From positions 600,001 through 632,000 of the forward strand of contig NC_006624.1 of NCBI RefSeq assembly GCF_000009965.1: a DNA stretch of 32,000 nucleotides, written 5' to 3'. Within the stretch, counting starts at the first letter, position 1. Each line of letters starts with the position of its first letter. Positions 5,831-32,000 of this stretch are shown here, piece after piece. The notes beneath the pieces were generated by a model. That model was not told the origin of the DNA and searched no databases. It saw only the letters and a program-made list of their open reading frames with translations. Made by a program: the position numbers and the translations under genes. This DNA is from Thermococcus kodakarensis KOD1 (GTDB lineage Archaea; Methanobacteriota_B; Thermococci; Thermococcales; Thermococcaceae).

Positions 5831-5862
5831 ACTACCGGGTAAAAAGAGGGAAGCGGAAGTAT

Positions 5863-6753
5863 TCAGCCGAGGATTTCCCTCTTTATAACCTCGGCAATCT
5901 CAACTATGGCCTTTGAAGCCTTGGCCTCTGGGAAGGCCTCGACAACGGGCTTCAGCATGCTCATGCTCTCTGGAACGGCTCTGTCGTAGGGTATTCTTCC
6001 CAGTATCGGTATTCCTTCTTTCTCAGCCCACTCCTCAAGGCCAGTGAAGCCGGGGTTGATGTCGGCTTTGTTGATGATGAGGTAGGCCGGCTCCCTGAAG
6101 TGCTGGACGACCTTGTAGGCCCTCTGAACGTCGCTGAGCGAAGCCGGGGTAGGCTCTGCTATGAGTATGGCAACGTCTGCCCCACCGAGGCTCGCTATCA
6201 CCTGACAGCCTATTCCAGCGGCCGAATCAACTATCATGTGCTCGAGGTTGAGCTCCTTCATCAGCTTCGCGGCCCACTCCTTCTCCTCCGTGACGAGCTT
6301 TCCGCTCTCGGGCCTTCCGACGTCGAGCTGGGCCGAGATGAGCGGGAAGCCGTACTTGGTTGTCGCCTTCCTGATTACCCCTGAGCGGACTTCCTCAAGG
6401 GTTATGGTTCCGGCCACCGGGCAGACCAGGCCACAGACGTTGCAGCCCTCGCAGGTGAGCTCGTTCACGACGTAGTTGCCTTCGTCATCGATGTAGATGC
6501 ACCCGTAGGGACAGCGCTCGTAGCAGATTCCGCACCTTACGCAGCTCTCTGTGTTTATCCTGGCTATCTTGGCACCTATATGCTCCCTCTCCTCTTCCCA
6601 CTCGGTCACGCCGAGGAGCAAACCAAGGTTCGGGGCCTCAGCGTCGGCGTCAACTGCCACAAACGAGTAATCGTCCTTCAGAAGGTAGAGGAGCGAGGCC
6701 GTTATCGTGCTCTTTCCAACGCCGCCCTTACCGCTCGCTATCGCCACCTGCAT
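5863..6753 (-). CDS. MinD/ParA-superfamily P-loop ATPase with inserted 2x[4Fe-4S] ferredoxin domain (COG1149-type), copy 2
   Basis: It has a deviant Walker A SGKGGVGKST and the cluster motifs CVRCGICYERCP and CEGCNVCGLVCP. The ATG at 6753 follows GGAGGTGG, and the start overlaps the stop of copy 1 (GTGATG). Confidence 0.85.
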   Translation of the reverse strand: MQVAIASGKGGVGKSTITASLLYLLKDDYSFVAVDADAEAPNLGLLLGVTEWEEEREHIGAKIARINTESCVRCGICYERCPYGCIYIDDEGNYVVNELTCEGCNVCGLVCPVAGTITLEEVRSGVIRKATTKYGFPLISAQLDVGRPESGKLVTEEKEWAAKLMKELNLEHMIVDSAAGIGCQVIASLGGADVAILIAEPTPASLSDVQRAYKVVQHFREPAYLIINKADINPGFTGLEEWAEKEGIPILGRIPYDRAVPESMSMLKPVVEAFPEAKASKAIVEIAEVIKREILG

Positions 6754-7625
6754 CACGCACCACCTCCAAGGAACTCGGCAACCCTTTCGGCGAGGCCTTT
6801 GAATATCTCTGCCTCGGGATAGTCCGTCAGGGCTATGGGTTTTCCCTCGACGTAACTTTTGACTATGTTCTCGCTGTAGGGGATCTCAGCCACGATTTCG
6901 GCGCCGTACTTCTCCGCCAGCTCCCTGACCTTACCAACGTCTCCGAGGTCAGACCTGTTCACCACAACCCAAGTCGGGATCTTCATCAGCTTCCCGAGCT
7001 GTAGGATAAGCTCCGTGTCGTGTATGCCGAGGGGAGTGGGTTCTGTTACCGCTATGAGGAGCTTTGAGCCTTCGACTGCTTTTGAGACCGTGTTTCCAGT
7101 TCCAGCGGCCGTGTCCACCATGAGGAGACCTTCCCTGACCTCTTCGGCCCTCTTCTTCGCCGCAACCACGAGCGGCATTGACCTCTCCTCTCCCTCCCTG
7201 AGCTTCCCCGTGACGAGCGTGAAGCCGTAGGGTGTTGGGGTAACGTACGTGTGGCCTATAACTCTGAAGGCCTCTTGAATGGCCCCTGGTACAGGACAGA
7301 CTATCTCACAGGCCCTGCAGCCGGAACAGAGGGTCGGCATGAGAAAGGGCGTCCCGTCCTTCAGCGTCACTATCGCGTGCTCCTCACACACCTCGGCGCA
7401 CTTCCTGCACTTGGTGCACTTCGAGTAGTCGAAGCGCGGCATGAACTGGTTCACGGGTTCTTCGTTGGCAAGCTCAACTCCCAGAAGTATGTGGTCGTTC
7501 GGTGCCTCGACGTCAAGATCCGCCAGAGTCAGCCTGACCCCAATCTTCCTGAGCGCCACCGCGAGGTTTGTCGCGACCGTTGATTTTCCGGTTCCGCCTT
7601 TTCCACCGCTCACCGCTATCTGCAA
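6753..7625 (-). CDS. MinD/ParA-superfamily P-loop ATPase with inserted 2x[4Fe-4S] ferredoxin domain (COG1149-type), copy 1
   Basis: It has Walker A SGGKGGTGKST and the cluster motifs CTKCRKCAEVCE and CSGCRACEIVCP. The ORF runs to 7685, but a TATA-like element and GGAGGTGA lie inside that extension. A TTG at 7625 gives MQIAVSGGKGG, which parallels the paralog's MQVAIASGKGG. Confidence 0.8.
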   Translation of the reverse strand: MQIAVSGGKGGTGKSTVATNLAVALRKIGVRLTLADLDVEAPNDHILLGVELANEEPVNQFMPRFDYSKCTKCRKCAEVCEEHAIVTLKDGTPFLMPTLCSGCRACEIVCPVPGAIQEAFRVIGHTYVTPTPYGFTLVTGKLREGEERSMPLVVAAKKRAEEVREGLLMVDTAAGTGNTVSKAVEGSKLLIAVTEPTPLGIHDTELILQLGKLMKIPTWVVVNRSDLGDVGKVRELAEKYGAEIVAEIPYSENIVKSYVEGKPIALTDYPEAEIFKGLAERVAEFLGGGA

Positions 7626-7642
7626 GCTCTCACCTCCGGAAA

Positions 7643-7684
7643 TTAGGGTAGCCGAATTGGTTATAAGCTTTGTGCATACGCTCA
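7643..7684 (-). promoter_or_regulatory. Internal promoter module: TGAGCGTATGCACA operator-like element, GCTTATAAC TATA box and TTCGGCTACCCTAA iron-box-like element
   Basis: Read on the minus strand it is TAATGAGCGTATGCACAAAGCTTATAACCAATTCGGCTACCCTAATTTCCGGAGGTGAGAGCTTG. The first 28 nt match the module at 31831 in 25 of 28 positions by my manual alignment. Confidence 0.6.
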
Positions 7685-8632
7685 TTACTCCCTGCTCTTC
7701 AGCCTCCTCATGTAGAACCTCTTCCCGTTGTACTCAAGCTCTATCAACTTCCCCTCTTTCAGGAGCTTCTCAACAATGCTCCAGTCTGCGTTTGCCTTCT
7801 CCAGAAACTCCGCAACGGCGTCCTCGCGCATTGGATGGACTGAGGTTATGCTCAGCAGATCCTCCTCAACGTTACCCGTAAAGGCGAAGGCGTTCCCCTC
7901 GTAGCCGATCAGGTATTCCACGCGCTCGTCCCCAAGGATTTCGCTGAAGACCTGATATGCGTGGTTGATGACATCTTCCTTCGCAGGTTTCACCCACGGT
8001 TCCGCCGGCGGTCTCGTTGGAACGGCTATGTAGGCTTTATCCGGTTTCAGCTCCCTCAGAAATTCCGCTATCTTCTCGAACTCGTTGCCATAGTCTATCC
8101 CGTCTATCAGCATCGTCTCGGTGACTATCTTTCCCTTGAACTCCTTCCTGAACTCCAGCATGCCCTCAAGGATCTTCTCAAGGCTCAGGCTCTTGTGGGG
8201 CCTGTCAATTCTCCTCCAGAGCGGCTCACTGACAGCATCAACTTTCAGCGAGACGAAGTCAAACTTCAGAAGGTCTTCCCTGACATCTTCTCTCCAGATG
8301 AGCGAGGAGTTAGTGAGGATAGCCGGGGGGATTTCAAGGGATTTCAAAAGCTCCGCCTCCTTCCCGAGGTTTATGTCGAGCGTGGGCTCTCCATCTGGAA
8401 CGAAGGTGATGTAGTCTATCCTCTCGCTCCTCGCGAGTGCCTCCTCGACTTTCTCCTTGACTTCTCTGAAGATCAGTTCGGGCTCGTAGAAGGGCCTCCT
8501 CTTGATTTCCATTCTGAGAGTTTTCCCTATCTGACAGTAAACGCAGGCGTAGGTGCATACCTTGTCGGGGATGTTGTTCACGCCGAGGCTCCTGCCGAGC
8601 CTCCTCGAGGGGACAGGTCCAAAGGCTATCAT
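7685..8632 (-). CDS. Radical SAM protein (NifB/MoaA-related Fe-S oxidoreductase type)
   Basis: The CxxxCxxC motif occurs in CTYACVYCQIG near the N-terminus. The 315-aa ORF has GGTGGTGGT upstream of its ATG. Confidence 0.8.
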   Translation of the reverse strand: MIAFGPVPSRRLGRSLGVNNIPDKVCTYACVYCQIGKTLRMEIKRRPFYEPELIFREVKEKVEEALARSERIDYITFVPDGEPTLDINLGKEAELLKSLEIPPAILTNSSLIWREDVREDLLKFDFVSLKVDAVSEPLWRRIDRPHKSLSLEKILEGMLEFRKEFKGKIVTETMLIDGIDYGNEFEKIAEFLRELKPDKAYIAVPTRPPAEPWVKPAKEDVINHAYQVFSEILGDERVEYLIGYEGNAFAFTGNVEEDLLSITSVHPMREDAVAEFLEKANADWSIVEKLLKEGKLIELEYNGKRFYMRRLKSRE

Positions 8633-8645
8633 ACCACCACCGGAG

Positions 8646-8659
8646 TTAGGTTAGCCTAA
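8646..8659. promoter_or_regulatory. DtxR/IdeR-type iron-box-like element TTAGGTTAGCCTAA between TATA box (8662-8671) and the radical-SAM start
   Basis: The minus-strand reading is ATTTATACGCCTTTAGGCTAACCTAACTCCGGTGGTGGTATG. The 14-mer equals the first 14 nt of the corynebacterial/mycobacterial 19-bp iron-box consensus TTAGGTTAGCCTAACCTAA. Confidence 0.6.
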
Positions 8660-8726
8660 AGGCGTATAAATCTTGTGAAGAACAAAAGCAATAAACGGGA
8701 AGCACGAACAAAGGGCGGGATGGTCT

Positions 8727-9603: not shown

Positions 9604-9655
9604 AAACATTTTTGTTTAACAAAAACACTTTTGTTAGCGCAAACTATTTAAACAA
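9604..9655 (+). promoter_or_regulatory. GAPN promoter element P1: AT-rich alternating half-sites TTTTGTT-T-AACAAAA-ACAC-TTTTGTT plus TATA TATTTAAA (9645-9652)
   Basis: About 44 of 52 positions are identical to 11216-11267 by manual alignment. The first 15 nt are identical to 20710-20724. Confidence 0.7.
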
Positions 9656-9663
9656 CCGTTGTA

Positions 9664-9680
9664 TATCACAGATGGTGATA
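9664..9680. promoter_or_regulatory. Thermococcales glycolytic motif (TGM) TATCAC-N5-GTGATA, the Tgr/TrmBL1 operator
   Basis: The exact sequence TATCACAGATGGTGATA lies 12 nt downstream of the TATA box and 4 nt upstream of the GAPN ATG. Confidence 0.8.
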
Positions 9681-9683
9681 TAT

Positions 9684-11207
9684 ATGGTTGAGCCCTTCGT
9701 CCCCGAGGGGGAAATATTCGAAGGAATCTTCCGGCAGAACGAGGGTATACCCGAATTCGCAACGTACGTAAACGGGGAGTGGGTGTTTACCGGGAAGACA
9801 GCGGAGGTAAGAAGCCCGATAGACGGCTCGCTGATAGCTAGGGTAAGCCTGAGCGATATGGCCCTTTCGAACCGGGCGGTGGCGGCGGCATATTCCGCTG
9901 GGAGGCATGAGATAAGGGACACGCCGGGTGAAAAGAGGTTGGAGGCTTTTTTAAAGGTGGCGGAGCTTATTAGGGACTCATTCGACGATTTCGTCACCGC
10001 CCTGGTGCTCGACGCCGGCAAGCCGCTTTCAAACGCCCGCGGTGAGGTTACCGCCACAATCGAGAGACTTGAGAAGACGACGATGGAGTTCGGCAGGTTG
10101 ATAGGGGACTACATTCCCGGCGACTGGAGCGCAGAAAGCCTTGGAAGCGAGGGGATAGTCAAGAGGGAGCCCTACGGGGTTGTGCTCGCAATAAGTCCCT
10201 ACAACTACCCGCTGTTTATCTCCACCGCCAAGATCGTTCCGGCCCTACTTGCCGGAAACGCCGTGCTTCTGAAGCCATCTTCCCAGGATCCCCTCGCTCC
10301 CCTACTCCTGTCAAGGGTTCTTCAGCTTGCGGGAATTCCTGAAAGCGCCTATCACCTTCTAACTGTCCCAGGAGCGCTGATGGACTCCATACTGGCCGAC
10401 AGAAGAATAAGGGCGGTCACGTTTACGGGCAGCACCGAGGTCGGCGAGCACATCCTATCCATGGGAGGTATAAAGTTCTACCACATGGAACTCGGTGGTA
10501 AGGACCCAGCGGTGGTTCTGGACGACGCTCCGCTCGAAGAAACCGTGGAAAAGCTTGTCAAAGGTATGGTGAGCTACTCCGGCCAGAGGTGCGATGCGAT
10601 AAGGCTAATCATCGCCGAGGAGGGGATATACGAGCAGCTTAAGAGAGAACTCGTGGCTGCCCTCTCAAAAATAGAGCCCGAGAACCCGCTTGAAGACGAG
10701 GACGCCATTATGGGGCCACTGATAAACGAGCGGAGCGCTGAAAAAATAGAAGAGGTTTACAGGGATGCCCTGGAGAAGGGAGCGGTGCCCCTAACGGGGT
10801 TCAAGAGGAAAGGAGCGTACGTATGGCCTGTTCTCCTGGAGGCCAGCAGGGAAGTTCTGCCTGGACTCAGGGCGTTCCAGGAGGATGTTTTCGGTCCGCT
10901 CACAATCCTGGTTAAGGTTTCGAACGAGGACGAGGCCGTTGAGCTTGCCAACTCATCGAGGTTTGGCCTGGACGCCGCAGTTTTCAGTGGGGACGATTCC
11001 AGGGCGAGGAAAGTCGCGAGGAGGCTTGAAGTCGGGGCCGTCTTCATAAACGAGTTTCCACGGCACGGGATCGGTTATTACCCCTTCGGGGGCATGAAAG
11101 ACAGCGGCATCGGAAGGGAGGGCATAGGCTATTCCATCGAGACCCTCACTACGACTAAGACGATCGTCAGGAACTATCGGGGAAGGGGTGTCTGGGACTA
11201 CATCTGA
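9684..11207 (+). CDS. gapN: Non-phosphorylating glyceraldehyde-3-phosphate dehydrogenase (GAPN), aldehyde dehydrogenase family
   Basis: It has the ALDH catalytic motifs MELGGKD and SGQRCDA. The ORF begins at 9612, but the TATA box and TGM lie inside that extension, so the ATG at 9684 (MVEPFVPEG) is more likely. A TGM operator in the promoter supports a glycolytic role. Confidence 0.8.
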   Translation: MVEPFVPEGEIFEGIFRQNEGIPEFATYVNGEWVFTGKTAEVRSPIDGSLIARVSLSDMALSNRAVAAAYSAGRHEIRDTPGEKRLEAFLKVAELIRDSFDDFVTALVLDAGKPLSNARGEVTATIERLEKTTMEFGRLIGDYIPGDWSAESLGSEGIVKREPYGVVLAISPYNYPLFISTAKIVPALLAGNAVLLKPSSQDPLAPLLLSRVLQLAGIPESAYHLLTVPGALMDSILADRRIRAVTFTGSTEVGEHILSMGGIKFYHMELGGKDPAVVLDDAPLEETVEKLVKGMVSYSGQRCDAIRLIIAEEGIYEQLKRELVAALSKIEPENPLEDEDAIMGPLINERSAEKIEEVYRDALEKGAVPLTGFKRKGAYVWPVLLEASREVLPGLRAFQEDVFGPLTILVKVSNEDEAVELANSSRFGLDAAVFSGDDSRARKVARRLEVGAVFINEFPRHGIGYYPFGGMKDSGIGREGIGYSIETLTTTKTIVRNYRGRGVWDYI

Positions 11208-11215
11208 TTTGTTTT

Positions 11216-11267
11216 AAATGTTTTTATTTAACAAAAACACTTTTGTTTACTCAAAATATTTAAAAAA
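11216..11267 (+). promoter_or_regulatory. Chelate-ABC operon promoter element P2 (copy of P1) with TATA TATTTAAA (11257-11264)
   Basis: The sequence is AAATGTTTTTATTTAACAAAAACACTTTTGTTTACTCAAAATATTTAAAAAA. It starts 9 nt after the GAPN stop. Confidence 0.7.
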
Positions 11268-20335: not shown

Positions 20336-20370
20336 TCTACCACCCCCATGCACAATTGCGTATATCGTGC

Positions 20371-20384
20371 TTAGGTATCCCTAA
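20371..20384. promoter_or_regulatory. Iron-box-like element TTAGGTATCCCTAA in the feoA 5' region
   Basis: It follows the TTAGG-N4-CCTAA pattern. It lies between the feo TATA box (plus-strand CTTAAATAAC, 20415-20424, read on the minus strand) and the feoA start at 20335. Confidence 0.55.
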
Positions 20385-20389
20385 CAACT

Positions 20390-20408
20390 TCAGAGTAGGC
20401 TAACCTAA
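20390..20408. promoter_or_regulatory. Iron-box-like element (minus-strand TTAGGTTAGCCTACTCTGA)
   Basis: By my count it matches the 19-bp DtxR/IdeR consensus in 16 of 19 positions. It lies immediately downstream of the feo TATA box. Confidence 0.6.
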
Positions 20409-20468
20409 CATTCCCTTAAATAACTTTCTGTTTGTAAAGAAATACTTGGATGTTTGAAAACCCAAGAA

Positions 20469-20487
20469 TTAGGTTAGCCTAATCTAA
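20469..20487. promoter_or_regulatory. Near-consensus DtxR/IdeR iron box TTAGGTTAGCCTAATCTAA
   Basis: It matches TTAGGTTAGCCTAACCTAA in 18 of 19 positions. It sits in the feo/mod divergent intergenic region. Confidence 0.7.
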
Positions 20488-20609
20488 CTAAAATGCTCCA
20501 AAATAGGTAGCATAGGTCAGTTGAAACCAAAAATGGATGGGTTTGAAAAAGAACTAAAAGAGTTTGAAATCACGAACAAGGCCACAGATTTGTTCCTTTT
20601 TTCGATTTC

Positions 20610-20623
20610 CGTGCATATGCACG
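20610..20623. promoter_or_regulatory. Perfect 14-bp palindrome CGTGCATATGCACG, followed by GCTTAAAAGC (TATA-like)
   Basis: It has the same GTGCATATGCAC core as 25229-25242 and is related to 31834-31847 and 7671-7684. It lies about 150 nt upstream of the modA start. Confidence 0.5.
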
Positions 20624-20709
20624 AATTAGGGCTTAAAAGCTTTTTCTTGTATCTTCTCTATTTTCAACTCCAAAACTCTGAGGCCTTGGTAAACACTTCC
20701 ACTTACTAT

Positions 20710-20740
20710 AAACATTTTTGTTTATCCAAAATGTTTAAAT
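20710..20740 (+). promoter_or_regulatory. modA promoter element P3: short version of P1/P2 with TATA GTTTAAAT
   Basis: AAACATTTTTGTTTA is identical to P1 positions 9604-9618. The following CCAAAATGTTTAAAT matches P2's TCAAAATATTTAAAA in 12 of 15 positions. The internal 18-nt unit is absent. Confidence 0.6.
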
Positions 20741-20769
20741 TCCAAATCCAAAACTTCTTCGGTGGTTCG

Positions 20770-23820: not shown

Positions 23821-24360
23821 TCATCGAGCTCTGATTTCAAGGAACTCAACGAGGAGGTTAAAGAACCGCGTGGTTCTCCCCAAGGGAGTTATAAAGCGGT
23901 AGACCAGCAGTTCCTCCCGGATTTCTTCTCTCTGGAACTCCTTTGGTAGGCCATCAAACTTTCCGCTTCTTGAGAGCTCTTTTACAACCCTCCAGCCATC
24001 GGAAAAGAGCGCGTTGAAGTACTCCTTCAGCCACTTCTCGTCGATTCTCCTTACGAAGAGCTCCCCCTCCCTTGACAAGCGGTAGTAGGTGTGGTGCTTG
24101 TGGACTTCGAAGGCCTTCTTGAACCTCGCCTTACTTCTCTTTATCGCACTTCCAGAGTCTCGCTCCACCAGTCCAGCTTCCATCAGATCTCTTATTGCAT
24201 CTTCGATGAGAGAAAGGGGTAGCTCGCTCATTTTCACCATCATCTTGGCGTAATCCACTCCGGCTTTCTTAAGGTGGGCCAGGACGTAGAGGTGAACCGG
24301 AAGGAGTTCAAGGCCTCGGTACGAACCTGGGCGTTCTTTCTGCGTATTCCCTCCATCCAT
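23821..24360 (-). CDS. Winged-helix DNA-binding protein (DUF2250-like) with C-terminal extension
   Basis: The sequence HLYVLAHLKKAGVDYAKMMVKMSELPLSLIEDAIRDLMEAGLVERDSGSAIKR...EVHKHHTYYRLSREGE looks like a wHTH. The start is uncertain because there is a 53-nt overlap with the upstream gene. Confidence 0.55.
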   Translation of the reverse strand: MDGGNTQKERPGSYRGLELLPVHLYVLAHLKKAGVDYAKMMVKMSELPLSLIEDAIRDLMEAGLVERDSGSAIKRSKARFKKAFEVHKHHTYYRLSREGELFVRRIDEKWLKEYFNALFSDGWRVVKELSRSGKFDGLPKEFQREEIREELLVYRFITPLGRTTRFFNLLVEFLEIRAR

Positions 24361-24745
24361 CGCCGAACATCTCCTCGAGGGCTTTCTCCTCCTCGCCTAT
24401 GAACCCGAGCACGCCCGCCCAGTAAACGAGAGGAAGTAAGAGCATGAAGCCACCGAAGAGGAGAGAGAATCCCGGAATCACGAGAAAGCCCCAGATGGAG
24501 TATATCGGATGCCTCACCCTTGAGTAGCAGCCCTCCGTGAGCAGTTTCCCCTTCGAGTAAGCCCTTGAGACCTGAAGGTAGCAGAGAAACCAGAGGGAGA
24601 GGCCGAGGAATACCATCAGGAACCCAAGGACTGGAAACGCGAGAAAGCTAACCCCAAGCCTCTCGTCTAGGTAAAACGCCAGAACCGCATAGATGGAAGA
24701 AAGGAGGGCAACCTTTGGAAAGATGCCCCAGAACTTCATGTTCAC
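24308..24745 (-). CDS. Membrane methyltransferase of the ICMT/PEMT-like family
   Basis: It has four hydrophobic helices. The segments SRVRHPIYS and EEKALEEMFGDGWREYAERTPRFVP fit the isoprenylcysteine carboxyl methyltransferase-like pattern. A GTG start overlaps the upstream stop (GTGA); an alternative ATG lies two codons in. Confidence 0.65.
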   Translation of the reverse strand: MNMKFWGIFPKVALLSSIYAVLAFYLDERLGVSFLAFPVLGFLMVFLGLSLWFLCYLQVSRAYSKGKLLTEGCYSRVRHPIYSIWGFLVIPGFSLLFGGFMLLLPLVYWAGVLGFIGEEEKALEEMFGDGWREYAERTPRFVPRP

Positions 24746-25161
24746 TCCTCTATCGGCGGTTTTTCGGTCTTCTTTTTCTGCACCTGCTCCCAGAGGTCGT
24801 CGAAGTTCTCCACGACCCGCTGGAGTGCAAGGTTTAGATCCCTCGTCCTCGTGAAGAATGCCACCTTGTTGGTCTTGTCCCGGATTCTCAGGAAGTTCGG
24901 GCCCATCCTGAAAGCTGCTAAAACGTCAACGTCGAGGAGCTGGCTGACGACTGCCTTGAACTTCCTCGGGTCGCCGTGCCCCTCGTCGTGTTCTTCCTCT
25001 ATGTCTTTAGCCTTGTTGTGCCTCTTTTCGAGGAGTTTTATGCTTCCATCCTCGCAGATTTCGTAGATCGCGAAGAACTCTGAATCACCGTAGTGTGCAT
25101 CTATGAGGTGTTCATCATCTTCCATTCCGAACGCGACTTTGAGGCATCTCTTCTCAGCCAT
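24742..25161 (-). CDS. NifX/NifB-C-terminal-like (dinitrogenase FeMo-cofactor-binding fold) protein, paralog 1
   Basis: The sequence LKVAFGMEDDEHLIDAHYGDSEFFAIYEI...VDVLAAFRMGPN fits the family pattern. The ORF extends to 25212, but a TATA box (CTTATAAAAC) and AGGTGA lie inside it. The start is the ATG at 25161 (or 25167). Confidence 0.6.
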   Translation of the reverse strand: MAEKRCLKVAFGMEDDEHLIDAHYGDSEFFAIYEICEDGSIKLLEKRHNKAKDIEEEHDEGHGDPRKFKAVVSQLLDVDVLAAFRMGPNFLRIRDKTNKVAFFTRTRDLNLALQRVVENFDDLWEQVQKKKTEKPPIEE

Positions 25162-25202
25162 GAGCATCACCTGAAATTCCTTCGGTAGGGGTTTTATAAG
25201 GA

Positions 25203-25216
25203 TTAGGCTCACCGAA
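25203..25216. promoter_or_regulatory. Iron-box-like element TTAGGCTCACCGAA in the divergent NifX-like promoter region
   Basis: It follows the TTAGG-N4-CC(T/G)AA pattern. The minus-strand reading TTCGGTGAGCCTAA resembles 7643-7656 (TTCGGCTACCCTAA). Confidence 0.45.
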
Positions 25217-25228
25217 AACTTTAAATGC

Positions 25229-25242
25229 TGTGCATATGCACA
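25229..25242. promoter_or_regulatory. Perfect 14-bp palindrome TGTGCATATGCACA between divergent NifX-like genes
   Basis: It is flanked by TTTAAAT (25220-25226). It is 33 nt upstream of the ATG at 25275 and 68 nt upstream of the ATG at 25161 on the other strand. Confidence 0.6.
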
Positions 25243-25274
25243 AAATAATAGACGAAAGAATGGAGGTGGTTGGC

Positions 25275-25898
25275 ATGAGGATCGCTGTCCCGACTAACGG
25301 TGGAGGTAGAGAAGACACGGTCGCCCCGGTCTTCGCGAGGGCACCGGCATTTTACATAGCGGACGTTGACGAGAACGGGAACATCGTCAGCGAGAAGGTC
25401 ATTCAGAACAGCGCCGCAATGGCCGGCGGAGGGGCCGGACCAATGGCAGTCCAGACCCTCATCAACGAGGGCGTTGAGGCAATAATAGCTCCTCAGGTCG
25501 GCCCGAACGCACTCGGTGCCATACAGGCCGCTGGTATCAGGCTCTACCAGGTCGCTCCAGGGACACCAGTGGAGGAGGCCATAAAGAGCGTCGTGAGCGG
25601 TGAAGCGGCCCAGTTCACGGCACCCGCTCCGCAGGCTCCCGTCGCTCCAGCGGCCCCTGCAACTCCGGTAGCACCGGTGCCGCCAGCGTACGGCCCAGCC
25701 TACCCGGCTTATCCTGCCTACGGCTACGGTTTCGGCCCTGGTTGGGGCAGAGGCTGGGGCCGCGGATGGGGTAGAGGACGCGGCTTCGGCAGAGGTTGGG
25801 GCAGAGGAGGAAGAGGCTGGGGAGCGAGGCTCGGCTACTGCCCGTGGACAGGAATGCCCAGCAGGAGAACCCTCCGCCGGTATTACGGCTGGTGGTGA
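25275..25898 (+). CDS. NifX/NifB-C-terminal-like domain fused to a Pro/Ala linker and a GW/RG-repeat tail
   Basis: The ATG at 25275 follows GGAGGTGG. The N-domain reads MRIAVPTNGGG...VAPVFARAPAFYIADVDENG...EAIIAPQVGPNALGAIQAAGIRLYQ. The tail reads APAPQAPVAPAAPATPVAPVPPAYGPAYPAYPAYGYGFGPGWGRGWGRGWGRGRGFGRGWGRGGRGWG...LGYCPWTG...RRYYGWW. Confidence 0.8.
   Translation: MRIAVPTNGGGREDTVAPVFARAPAFYIADVDENGNIVSEKVIQNSAAMAGGGAGPMAVQTLINEGVEAIIAPQVGPNALGAIQAAGIRLYQVAPGTPVEEAIKSVVSGEAAQFTAPAPQAPVAPAAPATPVAPVPPAYGPAYPAYPAYGYGFGPGWGRGWGRGWGRGRGFGRGWGRGGRGWGARLGYCPWTGMPSRRTLRRYYGWW
25740..25823 (+). repeat. Coding micro-repeat (GGN-TGG-GGN-MGN units) specifying GWGRGWGRGWGRGRGFGRGWGRGGRGWG
   Basis: Read directly: GGTTGGGGCAGAGGCTGGGGCCGCGGATGGGGTAGAGGACGCGGCTTCGGCAGAGGTTGGGGCAGAGGAGGAAGAGGCTGGGGA. 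Confidence 0.85.
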
Positions 25899-25931
25899 GG
25901 CCTTTCCCTTTAACTTTTTGAGGTGCCCAAA

Positions 25932-26177
25932 ATGCCGCGCGGTTACGGAAGGGGTATGGGCAGGGGTGGAAGATTCGGCCCGTATCCACCCTATTATGGA
26001 GGCTTCTTCGGCCGTTTTGGACTCTACGGAATAATAGACCTAATCTTCCTGCTCCTGATCCTCTACCTGCTCTTCAAGCTCTTCCTAGTGGCTGCGACCT
26101 ATGTTATAGCCCTCGTGGTGCTCTACATGCTCTGGGGCTTCATAAGTCCGAGGAGAGGCCGCTGGTTCTGGCCTTAG
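25932..26177 (+). CDS. Small membrane protein with MPRG-type RG/aromatic-rich N-terminus (DUF5320-like flavour) and two TM helices
   Basis: The ATG at 25932 follows GAGGTG. The sequence is MPRGYGRGMGRGGRFGPYPPYYGGFFGRF, then the hydrophobic IIDLIFLLLILYLLFKLFLVAATYVIALVVLYMLWGF, then the tail RRGRWFWP. Confidence 0.6.
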   Translation: MPRGYGRGMGRGGRFGPYPPYYGGFFGRFGLYGIIDLIFLLLILYLLFKLFLVAATYVIALVVLYMLWGFISPRRGRWFWP

Positions 26178-29067: not shown

Positions 29068-29694
29068 TTAGTCCTTATCGTTCTTTGCCACTATGAGCCT
29101 GACCACGCCGCTGTAGTAGGCTTCCTCTTTCTCCACTTTGAAGTGCTTCCTCACGAGCTTGTGGGTGTCCCTCAGCGGGTCGTCGTCGAGGAGAGGCTTG
29201 AGAATGAGCTTCATCGGCAGGAGGAAGAGGTAATTCACCAGCTCGCTCTCACTCTTGGTGTGTTCAAGGAAAATCGCCATTCCATCGGGCTTGAGGACTC
29301 GTTTTATTTCTTCTATGGCCCTTTCCGGCTCTGGAACGGTGCAGAAGACGAAGGAAGAGACAACGGTGTCGAAGAAGTCATCAGGAAAGGGAAGGCTCTC
29401 TGCCTCGGCAACCTTGAACTTTACATCCATTCCAAGTTCTTTCGCCCTTTTCTTGGCCATCTCGAGCATTTTCTCTGAGCCGTCAATGGCGTAGAGCTCC
29501 ACGTCCTGGGGGTAGTACCTGAGGGTCTTCCCAGTTCCAACGCCTATTTCGAGCGTTTTGCCTTCCGCGAGAGAAACCGCACTCTCCCTGAGTGGATTGA
29601 AGAACCTATCAAGCGGCCTTTCAAGTAGCTCGTAAAAGCCCGCTATCCTGTCGTACTTCTCGCGGTACATAAAAGACACCGAAAGGGGGCTCAC
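29068..29694 (-). CDS. Class I SAM-dependent methyltransferase (UbiE/COQ5-like)
   Basis: Motif I is LEIGVGTGKT, and LKPDGMAIFLEH is present. It has a 4-nt overlap with the sufB/D stop. Confidence 0.8.
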   Translation of the reverse strand: MSPLSVSFMYREKYDRIAGFYELLERPLDRFFNPLRESAVSLAEGKTLEIGVGTGKTLRYYPQDVELYAIDGSEKMLEMAKKRAKELGMDVKFKVAEAESLPFPDDFFDTVVSSFVFCTVPEPERAIEEIKRVLKPDGMAIFLEHTKSESELVNYLFLLPMKLILKPLLDDDPLRDTHKLVRKHFKVEKEEAYYSGVVRLIVAKNDKD

Positions 29695-31031
29695 ATGCCC
29701 CCGCTTACAGCAAGCTCGATTATCTTCCTTATCTCAACGAGGAACTCCATCGGGATGTCCTTGAGCATCGGATCGAGGAAGCCTTTGACTATGAGCTGGG
29801 TTGCCTTCTCCTCGTCCAGTCCGCGGCTCATAAGGTAGAAGAGCTCCTCTTCCCTTATCTTGCCTATCGCCGCCTCGTGGCTGAGTTCGGCATCGTCAAC
29901 CCTGCTTATAAGCCCCGGATAGGTCTCCATAACCGCCTTGTCGCTCATGAGGAGTGCGTCACAGCTTATGTGTCCCTTCGTCTTCGGAGCGTCCGCCTCG
30001 ATGATTCCCCTCGTCACGACGGTGCTCTCGTCCATTATGACTGCCTTGCTAGCGTTGATTCCGCTCGCTCCCGGCCCCTGGAGGAACATCCTGCCGCCGA
30101 GGTCAACGTAAAAGTCCTTCTGGCCGAGGATTATGCCGTTCAGCTCGACGTGGCCGCCCTCCTCGACCCAGTAGTGTGGATCTCCTATGTTGCTCTTTCC
30201 AGAGCCGAGGGTTACCGTCGTGTTGATGAAGCGCGCGCCCCTCCCTACCTTTGCTCTCGTCATGGGCCTCGTGTGGACGTACTCCGGCCAGTTCTGGAGG
30301 ACTGTGAGCTGGGCCTTCGCCCCCTCGTGGAAGTAGGCCTCAGTCATGTCGAGATGTAGGGAGTGCTTGAGGAGTATCGGAGCGGTACAGCCCTCGATGA
30401 GGTGGAACTCGGTGTTCCTCTCGGCTATGATGATTATGTGTGGCGCCTGGGCCAGCGCACTCTCCTGGATGAGGAAGAACAGGTGCAGCGGGAAGGGAAC
30501 CTTCAAGCCTTCCTTCACGTAGAGGAATATTCCGCCGTTCCATACTGCCGTATGATAGGCAGTAAGCTTGCTCTCGTCTGCGCGGAAGAGCTTGAGGAAG
30601 TGCTGCTTGACTATGTCGGGGTATTTTCTAACGGCCTCCTCCGTCGGGAGGACTATGAGGCCCTTCTTGGCCCAGTCCTGCAGGAACTGGTTGTATATGA
30701 CGCCCGTGTCCGTCTGAACCGCAAGCCCGGCTATGTACTTCTGCTCCACCTCGCTTATGCCCAGCCTGTCGAGGAGGGCCTTCATCTCTGGCGGGAGGTC
30801 GTCGAGGCTCTCTATATGGTCGGGAAGGCCTTTTACCTCTGGTTTGGCTATGAAGTGAAGGAGCTGCTCCTCGCTTATGACAGGGTCTTTGTGAGGTGCC
30901 CTCTCAAAGGCTTCCAGCGCCTTGTACCTTATCTTTGTCATCCACTCCGGCTCTTTGTTCCTCCTTGCGAGCTCTTCAATCTGGTTCTCGATGATGGCCT
31001 TTGCATCGGCCATTGTTATAGTTTCAGTCAT
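29691..31031 (-). CDS. sufB: Fe-S cluster assembly scaffold protein SufB/SufD family
   Basis: 446 aa. The C-terminus DDAELSHEAAIGKIREEELFYLMSRGLDEEKATQLIVKGF is the classic SufB/D ending. It overlaps the sufC stop by 4 nt. Confidence 0.85.
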   Translation of the reverse strand: MTETITMADAKAIIENQIEELARRNKEPEWMTKIRYKALEAFERAPHKDPVISEEQLLHFIAKPEVKGLPDHIESLDDLPPEMKALLDRLGISEVEQKYIAGLAVQTDTGVIYNQFLQDWAKKGLIVLPTEEAVRKYPDIVKQHFLKLFRADESKLTAYHTAVWNGGIFLYVKEGLKVPFPLHLFFLIQESALAQAPHIIIIAERNTEFHLIEGCTAPILLKHSLHLDMTEAYFHEGAKAQLTVLQNWPEYVHTRPMTRAKVGRGARFINTTVTLGSGKSNIGDPHYWVEEGGHVELNGIILGQKDFYVDLGGRMFLQGPGASGINASKAVIMDESTVVTRGIIEADAPKTKGHISCDALLMSDKAVMETYPGLISRVDDAELSHEAAIGKIREEELFYLMSRGLDEEKATQLIVKGFLDPMLKDIPMEFLVEIRKIIELAVSGGM

Positions 31032-31768
31032 GCTCCCACCTCCTCGAATATCCTGGCAAACCCTTCGCGGTCTATCTGGTCAACGAGCTCGCCGGAGCCG
31101 GTCTTGACGATCCTGCCGTCCTTCATGACGTGAACCGTGAGCTTCTCCCTGTCGAGGTGGCCGAGGATTCTGCCGTAGTGTGTGATGAGGAGTATCGCCG
31201 TCCCGCGCTGGTGGAGCTCCTCTATCTTCCTGCTGATTATGCTGAGGGAATCCACATCAACGCCACTGTCCGGCTCATCCAAAATGAGAAGCTTCGGCTC
31301 GATGAGAAGTGCCTGAAGTAGCTCAAGCCTCTTCCTCTCACCACCGGAGAAGCCAACGTTCACGTAGCGGTGAAGGTCTTCCTCCTTGAACCAGAGCTCC
31401 TTGGCCTTTTCAACTACGAGATCGTAGGCCTCAGCGGGGTCCATTCCCTTCAGCTCCACGAGCACCTGCTGGAGGAACTCTATGACCTTAACTCCTTCGA
31501 CCTCGGGTGGAACCTGAAACGCGAGCAGAATCCCCCTCTTCGCCCTCTCGTCGGGACCGAGTTCGGTGATGTCTTCCCCCTCGAAGAGGATTTTTCCATC
31601 GGTAACTCTGTACTTGGGATGACCCGCTATCGTCAGGGCCAGCGTTGACTTTCCTGAGCCGTTCGGCCCCATGATTACATGAAACTCACCCGGGTTAACT
31701 TCAAGATCTACGCCCCTTAGAATCTCCTTGTCCTCAACTGAGACGTGAAGGTTCTCAACTTTGAGCAT
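31028..31768 (-). CDS. sufC: Fe-S cluster assembly ATPase SufC
   Basis: Walker A GPNGSGKSTL, signature FSGGERKRLELLQ, Walker B LILDEPDSGVD and H-loop ITHY. The ATG at 31768 (MLKVENLHV) follows GGAGGTGA. The ORF-track start at 31846 includes the promoter. Confidence 0.9.
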   Translation of the reverse strand: MLKVENLHVSVEDKEILRGVDLEVNPGEFHVIMGPNGSGKSTLALTIAGHPKYRVTDGKILFEGEDITELGPDERAKRGILLAFQVPPEVEGVKVIEFLQQVLVELKGMDPAEAYDLVVEKAKELWFKEEDLHRYVNVGFSGGERKRLELLQALLIEPKLLILDEPDSGVDVDSLSIISRKIEELHQRGTAILLITHYGRILGHLDREKLTVHVMKDGRIVKTGSGELVDQIDREGFARIFEEVGA

Positions 31769-31833
31769 TCGCTCACCTCCGTGGGTAACGTTGATGGGAC
31801 GTTTTTTAAGCATTTTGGAACAGACTTGTGTAA

Positions 31834-31872
31834 TGAGCATATGCACAAGGCTTTTAACTTAGGCTTTCCTAA
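31834..31872 (+). promoter_or_regulatory. Promoter module: TGAGCATATGCACA operator-like element, GCTTTTAAC TATA box and TTAGGCTTTCCTAA iron-box-like element (31859-31872)
   Basis: The sequence is TAATGAGCATATGCACAAGGCTTTTAACTTAGGCTTTCCTAACTCCGATGGAGGTGAAGGACATG. It is a twin of the 7643-7684 module. Its box and downstream part also resemble the radical-SAM promoter (TTAGGCTAACCTAACTCCGGTGGTGGT). Confidence 0.6.
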
Positions 31873-31892
31873 CTCCGATGGAGGTGAAGGAC

Positions 31893-32000
31893 ATGAGGAT
31901 AATCGTATCAACCGTTACCGGAGGGCTCGACGACAGGGTGAACCCGGCCTTTGGAAGAACGCCGACGTTCACGATCGTGGACGTTGAGAACGGAGAGATA
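31893..32000 (+). CDS. NifX/NifB-C-terminal-like protein, paralog 3 (5' part only; runs off window)
   Basis: The ATG at 31893 follows GGAGGTGA. My own translation is MRIIVSTVTGGLDDRVNPAFGRTPTFTIVDVENGEI, which parallels the 25275 protein. This ORF is not in the supplied track because it is open-ended. Confidence 0.7.
   Translation, partial: MRIIVSTVTGGLDDRVNPAFGRTPTFTIVDVENGEI

Follow-up and report, generated by a model that had tools for sequence, protein, structure and literature searches.

What does the short element at the junction of a radical-SAM gene and a pair of MinD-type ATPase genes do, and which factors would read it? The question was raised by a stretch of 32,000 nt of the Thermococcus kodakarensis KOD1 genome (NC_006624.1, positions 600,001 to 632,000; referred to here, at its full length, as the window), which is an iron/sulfur gene neighbourhood of a Thermococcus. 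In a sequence-only reading, the element had been described as an internal promoter that duplicates the promoter of a NifX-like gene 24 kb away, that gives the ATPase pair separate transcriptional control and that points to a shared dedicated regulator. Based on the comparative analysis described here, the element is probably a working archaeal promoter of the MinD1-MinD2 pair, with a two-operator design, and a member of a promoter family of the Thermococcales; the claim of a promoter and a regulon, taken by itself, is held with high confidence. In the family layout, box A (TGNGCATATGCACA; also given as TGNGCATATGCNCA) comes first, then a TATA box and box B (TTAGG-N4-CCTAA), and the Shine-Dalgarno site and start codon follow. 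The family drives the sulfur-induced issA/sipA, SipB-like, NifX-like, MinD-type ATPase, small Gly/Arg-rich and DUF364 genes, and box B is found alone at the radical-SAM gene and feoAB. The parts of the junction, numbered from the first letter of the window, are as follows.

5863-6756, minus strand: MinD2, second ATPase of the pair, with an inserted 4Fe-4S domain; overlaps the MinD1 stop codon
6753-7625, minus strand: MinD1, MinD/ParA-type P-loop ATPase of 290 amino acids with an inserted 4Fe-4S ferredoxin domain (Pfam CbiA, ParA, Fer4)
7630-7637, minus strand: Shine-Dalgarno site GGAGGTGA, conserved in orthologous promoters
7636-7637, minus strand: predicted transcription start (G), placed by the TATA-to-start distances measured in T. 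onnurineus
7643-7656, minus strand: box B, TTCGGCTACCCTAA, a TTAGG-N4-CCTAA palindrome with 1 mismatch, between the TATA box and the predicted start
7660-7667, minus strand: TATA box CTTATAAC, read from the sequence
7671-7684, minus strand: box A, TGAGCGTATGCACA, an imperfect 14-bp palindrome directly after the radical-SAM stop codon
7685-8632, minus strand: radical-SAM gene, upstream of the module in head-to-tail order, with its TAA stop codon at 7685-7687
8646-8671, minus strand: radical-SAM promoter, with a TATA box ATTTATAC at 8664-8671 and box B TTAGGCTAACCTAA at 8646-8659, and no box A; the same design is present in a Pyrococcus horikoshii-like contig (L096)

When the 28-mer TAATGAGCGTATGCACAAAGCTTATAAC (7660-7687, minus strand) was used as a search pattern in the window with at most 3 mismatches, exactly one relative was found, a plus-strand site at 31831-31858 that differs at 3 positions; at the same threshold, zero matches to the pattern were obtained in 100 dinucleotide-preserving shuffles. 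The match of 25 in 28 positions, counted by hand in the sequence-only reading, was therefore correct. The repeat finder lengthened the pair to 29 nt (7660-7688 on the minus strand and 31830-31858 on the plus strand; 26/29 identical, 90%), for which the chance expectation in the window is ~4e-4 by a binomial estimate. Over the full modules of 68-71 nt, 52 of the 71 aligned columns were identical, with a single 3-nt indel between the TATA box and box B. The TTMGGCTNNCCTAA box, the Shine-Dalgarno site and a start codon that had been reported after each copy were all confirmed in place: the box reads TTCGGCTACCCTAA at 7656-7643 (minus strand) and TTAGGCTTTCCTAA at 31859-31872 (plus strand), GGAGGTGA is present at both copies (the second at 31880-31887, plus strand), and the modules are followed by TTG 7625 for MinD1 and ATG 31893 for the NifX-like gene. 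The strand needed correction, given that the second copy lies on the plus strand. The copies face opposite ways in the window but share one orientation relative to their own genes. The reported overlap with the radical-SAM stop codon holds for the 28-mer, which includes the TAA, and not for the palindromic core, which only abuts it.

The pair is not a duplicate of one promoter, as had been proposed, but part of a promoter family with at least three full copies in the window, additional sites with box B only, and dozens of members in relatives. Allowing at most 1 mismatch, box B was found at 7 sites in the window versus 0.74 expected, all in promoter regions (MinD1 7643, radical SAM 8646, feoA 20371, 20395 and 20469, issA/SipB-like 25203, and NifX-like 31859), and box A at three sites in the 32 kb (7671; 25229, a perfect palindrome; and 31834). 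An AT-rich 8-mer between A and B is kept in all modules. The third full A-TATA-B module was found between the genes for the IssA-like and SipB-like proteins (25242-25203, minus strand), and the same box A (25229-25242) lies on the plus strand directly upstream of issA. The further sites are listed below.

20371-20482, minus strand: three B boxes upstream of feoA (start ~20335), at 20371-20384, 20395-20408 and 20469-20482
24742-25161, minus strand: SipB-like NifX-domain gene, with an ICMT-like and then a DUF2250 gene after it
25193-25277: divergent issA/SipB-like promoter region, with box B at 25203-25216, a shared TATA box at 25219-25226 and a perfect box A at 25229-25242
25193-25200: second TATA box of the region, serving the SipB-like gene (ATG at 25161, minus strand)
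25275-25898, plus strand: IssA homologue with a Gly/Arg-rich tail
31834-31895, plus strand: NifX-like promoter module, with box A at 31834-31847, the TATA box at 31850-31857, box B at 31859-31872, the Shine-Dalgarno site at 31880-31887 and ATG 31893

The comparison covered at least 46 Thermococci loci, which were collected by a genome scan with MinD1 (at least 6 loci) and a metagenome scan with the SipB-like protein; loci of P. furiosus, Palaeococcus pacificus, T. barophilus, the P. horikoshii-like contig and T. onnurineus were added by exact protein look-up, and these loci and the metagenome scan provided most of the comparative power. In the scan-derived set, 48 non-identical A-TATA-B modules were found in 365 kb of related Thermococci loci, always with A and B in the same order about the TATA box. 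Three classes were recognized: MinD1 promoters with an A-to-B gap of 14 nt; promoters of a NifX-like gene whose product starts with MRIIVSTV, with a gap of 10-11 nt; and promoters of a SipB-like or DUF364 gene that diverges from issA, in which box A is perfect and the gap measures 12-13 nt. To this was added a set of MinD1 promoters chosen without motif selection, namely every orthologue with at least 90 nt upstream (26 distinct regions). A and B were present at a constant distance from the start codon in 22 of these, B only in 2, and no module in the remaining 2 (L006 and L084), in which MinD1 is fused into an operon behind a SipB-like gene. The sequence upstream of box A was unrelated between lineages and, as judged from these alignments, the pattern is a classical phylogenetic footprint.

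The P. horikoshii-like contig contains the same radical-SAM/[A-TATA-B]/ATPase junction, with the genes in the order radical SAM, MinD1, MinD2. Its junction reads radical-SAM stop codon TGA, TAT, TGTGCATATGCACA, ACGTTTAAAAACG, TTAGGCTAACCTAA, TTCTAGGAGGTGAAGGG and ATG-CAGATAGC, and its box A, TGTGCATATGCACA, is a perfect palindrome. The B-TATA-A-issA order is kept in P. furiosus, Palaeococcus pacificus, T. barophilus and T. onnurineus. Both module orientations are found in P. furiosus, as A-TATA-B on a MinD1 pseudogene and as B-TATA-A on issA; the gene divergent from issA is a frameshifted 'CobQ' (MinD1) pseudogene, which by locus-tag numbering lies in the PF2026-2028 interval (L093, 5489-5836 and further downstream). 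The P. furiosus 'SipB' (PF2026) fragments most likely lie within, and belong to, this frameshifted MinD1 pseudogene driven by the same module. Orthologues of MinD1 include TON_0916, TK0702 and the P. furiosus 'SipB' pseudogene. As for naming, the T. onnurineus 'SipB' (TON_0916) is an intact MinD1 and differs from the NifX-domain protein called SipB-like here.

Transcription start sites from the primary transcriptome of T. onnurineus NA1, obtained by differential RNA sequencing (dRNA-seq; supplement of PMC5316973), were mapped onto the T. onnurineus locus (L099) with a gene-coordinate offset of 843310. Starts were mapped for TON_0917 (SipB-like), TON_0919 (IssA) and TON_0921 (NifX-like), at 24.5-27.5 nt from the TATA centre. 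The SipB-like start lies 4 nt past box A (A at -17 to -4, TATA centre at -24.5), and the issA start lies 8 nt past box A (A at -21 to -8, TATA centre at -27.5, B at -48 to -35). The NifX-like start lies 9 nt past box B (B at -22 to -9, TATA centre at ~-27, A at -46 to -33), with box A overlapping the TGA stop codon of the co-directional upstream gene TON_0920. The TON_0921 promoter is thus a verified internal promoter with a layout equal to that of the junction in the window. When the same distances were applied to the window, the NifX-like start was predicted at ~G31880. In the supplements for P. furiosus, PF2025 and the CobQ pseudogene were found in annotation tables only, with no start site retrievable, and no box A string was found in the supplements for T. 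kodakarensis.

Expression values for the T. onnurineus genes were taken from the same source (PMC5316973), in which the order of the CO and formate columns was assumed from the text of the paper.

issA: sulfur 142389, CO 181, formate 92
TON_0920: sulfur 25622, CO 40, formate 18
NifX-like: sulfur 11975, CO 612, formate 54
MinD1: sulfur 17972, CO 2440, formate 341
MinD2: sulfur 6013, CO 786, formate 164
SipB-like: sulfur 3302, CO 314, formate 76

The module genes were 7- to 1500-fold higher in sulfur medium, and issA about 1000-fold. The shared control of these genes that had been suggested from the window is supported by the strong increase of the MinD pair, NifX-like, SipB-like and IssA genes in sulfur medium. 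In Palaeococcus pacificus, SipA, radical-SAM and CobQ-type genes, together with feoAB, have likewise been reported as sulfur-induced.

At the MinD1 junction itself, a TATA box, a candidate purine start 24-28 nt away, and a Shine-Dalgarno site and TTG at a fixed distance were found. The distance between G7637 and the TATA centre is 26.5 nt, and the MinD1 transcript is predicted to start at about this G, with a 5' untranslated region of ~12 nt that opens with the Shine-Dalgarno sequence. The start context is conserved as TTG, ATG or GTG followed by CAGATAGC, with the Shine-Dalgarno site 6-8 nt upstream; the in-frame N-terminal extension of the open reading frame (ORF) track was absent from every other lineage compared, and the Pfam domains of the extended ORF begin only at residue 22-23. 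Because of these three features, the predicted start of MinD1 is TTG 7625, as the sequence-only reading had argued. The internal promoter that it had proposed gains support from the parts held at fixed positions in the 22 MinD1 upstream regions with unrelated sequence further upstream, from the equal junction in the P. horikoshii-like contig and from the T. onnurineus promoters of the same design with mapped primary starts. The starts of issA, SipB-like and sufC were likewise moved relative to the ORF track, since a Shine-Dalgarno site and ATG are conserved and the ORF-track starts run through promoter elements; the predicted starts are 25275, 25161 and 31768, versus ORF-track GTG 25230, 25212 and 31846, respectively. 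An RNA element or riboswitch at the junction was rejected, given that Rfam gave zero matches in the whole window and the junction RNA folded no better than shuffled sequence (z-score +1.0).

As the chief alternative still standing, the promoter at the junction may be weak and the ATPase pair transcribed mostly by read-through. Carried to its end, this would make the module an inactive or near-inactive remnant of a bidirectional promoter, with the pair transcribed from the radical-SAM promoter and box A without a role here, which we regard as unlikely. No run of 5 or more T was found between the radical-SAM gene and MinD1 (a T5 run at 5841-5845 follows the MinD2 stop codon) and the radical-SAM promoter carries its own box B, so that read-through from the radical-SAM gene into the ATPase pair is likely. 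The remnant explanation also draws on the two lineages in which MinD1 is without a module behind a SipB-like gene, on TON_0916, which is not in the T. onnurineus start-site table though highly expressed, and on the TATA-distal half of box A, which is degenerate in several MinD1 promoters, so that the box may be weak or partly relic at this promoter. Against it stand the full module with a perfect box A retained at the same head-to-tail junction in the Pyrococcus contig, the constant spacing to the start codon that 22 of 26 lineages share and the mapped primary start of the head-to-tail TON_0921 promoter of the same design. Of the separate control claimed for the ATPase pair, the added input through box A at the internal promoter stood, and full separation from the radical-SAM gene did not, given the box B of the latter and the missing T-run terminator.

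Boxes A and B are better described as two separate palindromes than as one composite site. The A-to-B distance ranges from 9 to 16 nt across modules; the radical-SAM and feoA promoters have B alone, and small Gly/Arg-rich protein genes of relatives have A alone, as TATA-A-ATG, which together argue for a box A separate from box B. The sequence-only reading implied a single composite site of one dedicated regulator, and in its favour A and B occur together in the 48 modules in constant order around the TATA box. This is quite improbable, even more so than the remnant, given the variable spacing, the independent palindromic symmetry of each box, the sites at which one box stands without the other and the fit of box B to the operator of a known global regulator family. 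Two separate palindromes at a distance of 9-16 nt make two factors more likely than one. Of the shared dedicated regulator, the co-regulation is supported; a single factor is not, and the DtxR proposed below for box B would not be a dedicated one.

Could box A be an extended core-promoter element, such as an unusual B recognition element (BRE) or upstream element that raises promoter strength, instead of a factor site? Conservation is highest in the half next to the TATA box, ATGCACAAAG, and this half overlaps the BRE position (at MinD1, the TATA-proximal end lies over the expected BRE), and the genes are very highly expressed in sulfur medium. Box A lies upstream of the TATA box, over the BRE position, at MinD1 and NifX-like, and between the TATA box and the start at issA, SipB-like and the Gly/Arg-rich genes. 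It is, however, a true palindrome, perfect wherever it lies downstream of the TATA box, which is not a BRE position; it is limited to one functional gene set, with the three sites in 32 kb given above; and expression that varies up to ~1500-fold with conditions calls for a regulator. A pure core-promoter role is therefore very unlikely. A recent intragenomic duplication or small mobile repeat without regulatory meaning, for which it could be said that the window copies (26/29) resemble each other more closely than, in most other genomes, the MinD1 module resembles the NifX-like one, can be dismissed, as orthologous modules stand at orthologous genes across Thermococcus, Pyrococcus and Palaeococcus, the likeness does not reach beyond the functional boxes, which stand in a fixed register with the start codons, and the repeat search reports arms of 29 nt only.

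For the two-operator promoter, the following mechanism is proposed. One near-symmetric TATA box would provide a single pre-initiation site, closely flanked by two different 14-bp palindromic operators. At MinD1 and NifX-like, where box B lies between the TATA box and the start, a bound dimer would block the recruitment of RNA polymerase. The sequence of box B and its presence at feoAB point to an iron-loaded DtxR-family repressor as the protein that would bind there. Box A would be read by a separate second factor, which could be a repressor, an activator or, as with SurR and TrmBL1, a regulator whose sign depends on position. Given that box A lies between the TATA box and the start in the opposite reading direction, it is most likely the operator of this putative second factor.

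A DtxR operator is the assignment that we favour, by some distance short of certainty, for box B. The DtxR consensus is TTAGGTTAGCCTAACCTAA, and TTAGGTTAGCCTAA, present at 8646 and 20469, equals its nt 1-14. Like the DtxR/IdeR iron boxes, the box B palindrome fits the TTAGG..CCTAA consensus and precedes the iron-uptake gene feoA (three sites in the window; two B boxes at the feoAB operon in L001). Unlike them, box B is 14 bp long, with room for one dimer, versus a 19-bp double-dimer site, and it also marks genes of iron-sulfur storage and assembly, for which sulfur and iron bring induction instead of repression. The Archaeoglobus fulgidus MDR1 protein is an archaeal DtxR homologue, and repressors of the MDR1 type block polymerase recruitment from between the TATA box and the start site. 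DtxR homologues are known in P. furiosus (PF0851) and T. kodakarensis (TK0107), and P. furiosus iron transporters, including feoAB, have been linked to DtxR. A literature search with the DtxR locus tags gave unrelated papers only, and the box B sites may already be catalogued in a study of an archaeal DtxR regulon.

The shared TATA box resembles the bidirectional BRE-TATA-BRE promoters of P. furiosus (PMC6640164), in which one near-symmetric TATA box (TTTAAA, TTATAA and TTTTAA types) is used, and the divergent gene starts are here only 71-120 bp apart. In the 71-bp intergenic region of TON_0916/0917, a single TATA-like element was found with the SipB-like start 24.5 nt from its centre; it serves SipB-like on one side and would be needed by MinD1 on the other. 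The difference is that the second direction was for the most part reported as non-functional antisense in P. furiosus (PMC6640164), whereas here genes lie both ways and a palindromic operator is present on each side.

As with box A, the sites of SurR (GTTn3AAC) and of TrmBL1/Tgr (the Thermococcales glycolytic motif, TGM; TATCAC-N5-GTGATA) are palindromic, with an effect set by their position relative to the BRE and TATA box. Box A is another sequence, and neither motif occurs in or near the modules: the window contains 13 GTTn3AAC matches, none near a module, the long form GTTn3AACn5GTT is absent, and the only TGM match, at 9664, lies upstream of an aldehyde dehydrogenase (ALDH)-family gene. 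SurR and TGM sites were therefore rejected as an explanation. SurR governs the primary sulfur response, and the module genes belong to a slower 'secondary' sulfur response, for which, to our knowledge, no regulator has been named. A possible, still tentative, interpretation is that box A is the missing cis-element of this SurR-independent response, read by an uncharacterised regulator family (with DUF2250 as the leading candidate), while the DtxR box and box A together gate one symmetric TATA box, each in one direction. Box A would gate issA, SipB-like and the Gly/Arg-rich genes, box B would gate the MinD-type, NifX-like and DUF364 genes, and each box would also cover the BRE of the opposite direction. 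If so, a single 45-bp unit would combine an iron signal with a sulfide or iron-sulfur signal.

The candidate gene is encoded in the window as follows.

23821-24360, minus strand: DUF2250 winged-helix protein (Pfam DUF2250), last gene of the SipB-like/ICMT-like/DUF2250 cluster

This gene was found in 28 of 54 related loci and adjoins the SipB-like gene in most of the 24 loci that hold both. Its AlphaFold2 model (mean predicted local distance difference test score, pLDDT, 86) is a winged helix that resembles MarR-type regulators, with an invariant basic wing, KRSKARFKKAFEVHKHH. The predicted fold aligns with MarR, YusO, MepR-like and AspA structures, with weak similarity (Foldseek E ~2e-3, template modelling score 0.4-0.5); the protein is without cysteine and its basic wing is unusual. 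Against the PDB sequences, a single-sequence search gave no significant match, and a profile search gave marginal MarR and AspA matches only. At the DUF2250 loci outside the Thermococcales (Archaeoglobus, L097; a metagenome, L098), neither box was found, and DUF2250 was not linked to the module genes. On the predicted structure and gene context, DUF2250 is a candidate for the box A factor and, as such, a rather doubtful one. A DUF134 helix-turn-helix gene adjoins the radical-SAM/MinD cluster in T. barophilus (L095, 9604-9957) and could be a second regulator candidate where DUF2250 is not seen.

Several points weigh against the two-operator promoter and the factors proposed for it. The missing TON_0916 start and the possibly relic box A at MinD1 have been given above. 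The DtxR assignment of box B is inferred from motif similarity and gene context. Expression of issA/sipA has been reported as sulfide-responsive in a way that depends on iron, and the need for iron reported for sipA induction, as quoted second-hand, is no obvious fit to classical DtxR logic, in which the iron-loaded protein represses. DUF2250 was absent for P. furiosus, Palaeococcus and T. barophilus among the matches listed, yet box A is present in them, and TON_0918 (DUF2250) carries neither box in its own promoter and does not respond to sulfur.

Searches of the accessible literature with the box sequences returned unrelated primers and the DtxR consensus only; box A was not found, nor was a regulator or cis-element for the sulfur response of issA/sipA. 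Archaeal promoters under regulation, DtxR boxes and bidirectional promoters with a shared TATA box have been described before; within the accessible literature, the new points are box A, the combination of A, TATA and B in one design, and the retention of that design across sulfur-induced iron-sulfur genes. IssA/SipA is a major iron-sulfur storage protein of these archaea, and its gene is among their most strongly sulfur-induced. The modules offer precise, conserved 14-bp targets with start sites mapped in a model strain, which makes this regulation directly testable, and the gene starts of MinD1, issA, SipB-like and sufC are corrected relative to the ORF track.

The neighbouring iron and iron-sulfur genes of the window are the following.

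17880 to ~20335, minus strand: feoAB
29691-31768, minus strand: sufCB

A tungstate/molybdate-type ATP-binding cassette (ABC) transporter is also encoded in the window. The closest homologue of the IssA protein is that of T. alcaliphilus (95% identity), and the C-terminus of the window's protein contains tandem Gly/Arg/Trp-rich repeats of the GFGPGWGRG type (repeat family D3, window 25727-25966). The NifX-like gene encodes 154 amino acids in its source contig (L100), with no co-directional gene within 80 nt after it; beyond the window end, it is followed by an AF2212-like/PIN pair (L100, 8663-9329). The three B boxes of feoA lie in a 425-bp feoA/WtpA-like intergenic region (20336-20760), in which the ORF-track start of the WtpA-like gene, TTG 20521, is probably wrong. 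In some Thermococci (L002, 3226-3711; also L054, L056 and L067), the gene that diverges from MinD1, on the module's box A side, encodes a rubrerythrin/ferritin-like protein of 161 amino acids.

Further box-A-like sequences were observed. Stand-alone small Gly/Arg-rich proteins with a TATA-A-ATG promoter were seen in L003 (1478-1660), L081 and L096 (near 5752) and as TON_0920. An orphan palindrome, CGTGCATATGCACG, lies at 20610-20623 without an obvious gene. A further box-A-like palindrome, TGAGCGAATGCTCA, lies at 31762-31775, where it covers both the ATG of sufC and its Shine-Dalgarno site; this may be due to chance, given that the palindrome contains the start codon, or may be a weak operator, sufBC being sulfur-induced in relatives. 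Within the issA coding region, TGTGCAAATGCTCA was found ~170-215 nt inside the gene in Palaeococcus and T. barophilus (L094 6174 and L095 6216), with a weaker TGTTCAAATGCTCA at the same position in P. furiosus (L093 6174). The sequence could be an auxiliary operator or be kept because of the protein that it encodes.

A 52-nt direct repeat, AAACATTTTTGTTTAACAAAAACACTTTTGTT...TATTTAAA, is present at 9604-9655, 11216-11267 and 20691-20742 (copies 85% and 65% identical). It is an unrelated promoter-like module that precedes the ALDH-family gene (9612-11207), a periplasmic-binding-protein/FecCD ABC operon and a WtpA/ModA-like binding protein gene, and it may be the site of another metal-responsive regulator. 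The perfect TGM motif TATCACAGATGGTGATA (9664-9680) lies just after the first repeat copy, upstream of the ALDH-family gene, whose ORF-track start, TTG 9612, is probably too far upstream. The product of this gene may be a GAPN-type glycolytic enzyme. Finally, a ribbon-helix-helix (CopG) and PIN-domain pair at 1060-1835 of the window is likely a toxin-antitoxin module.

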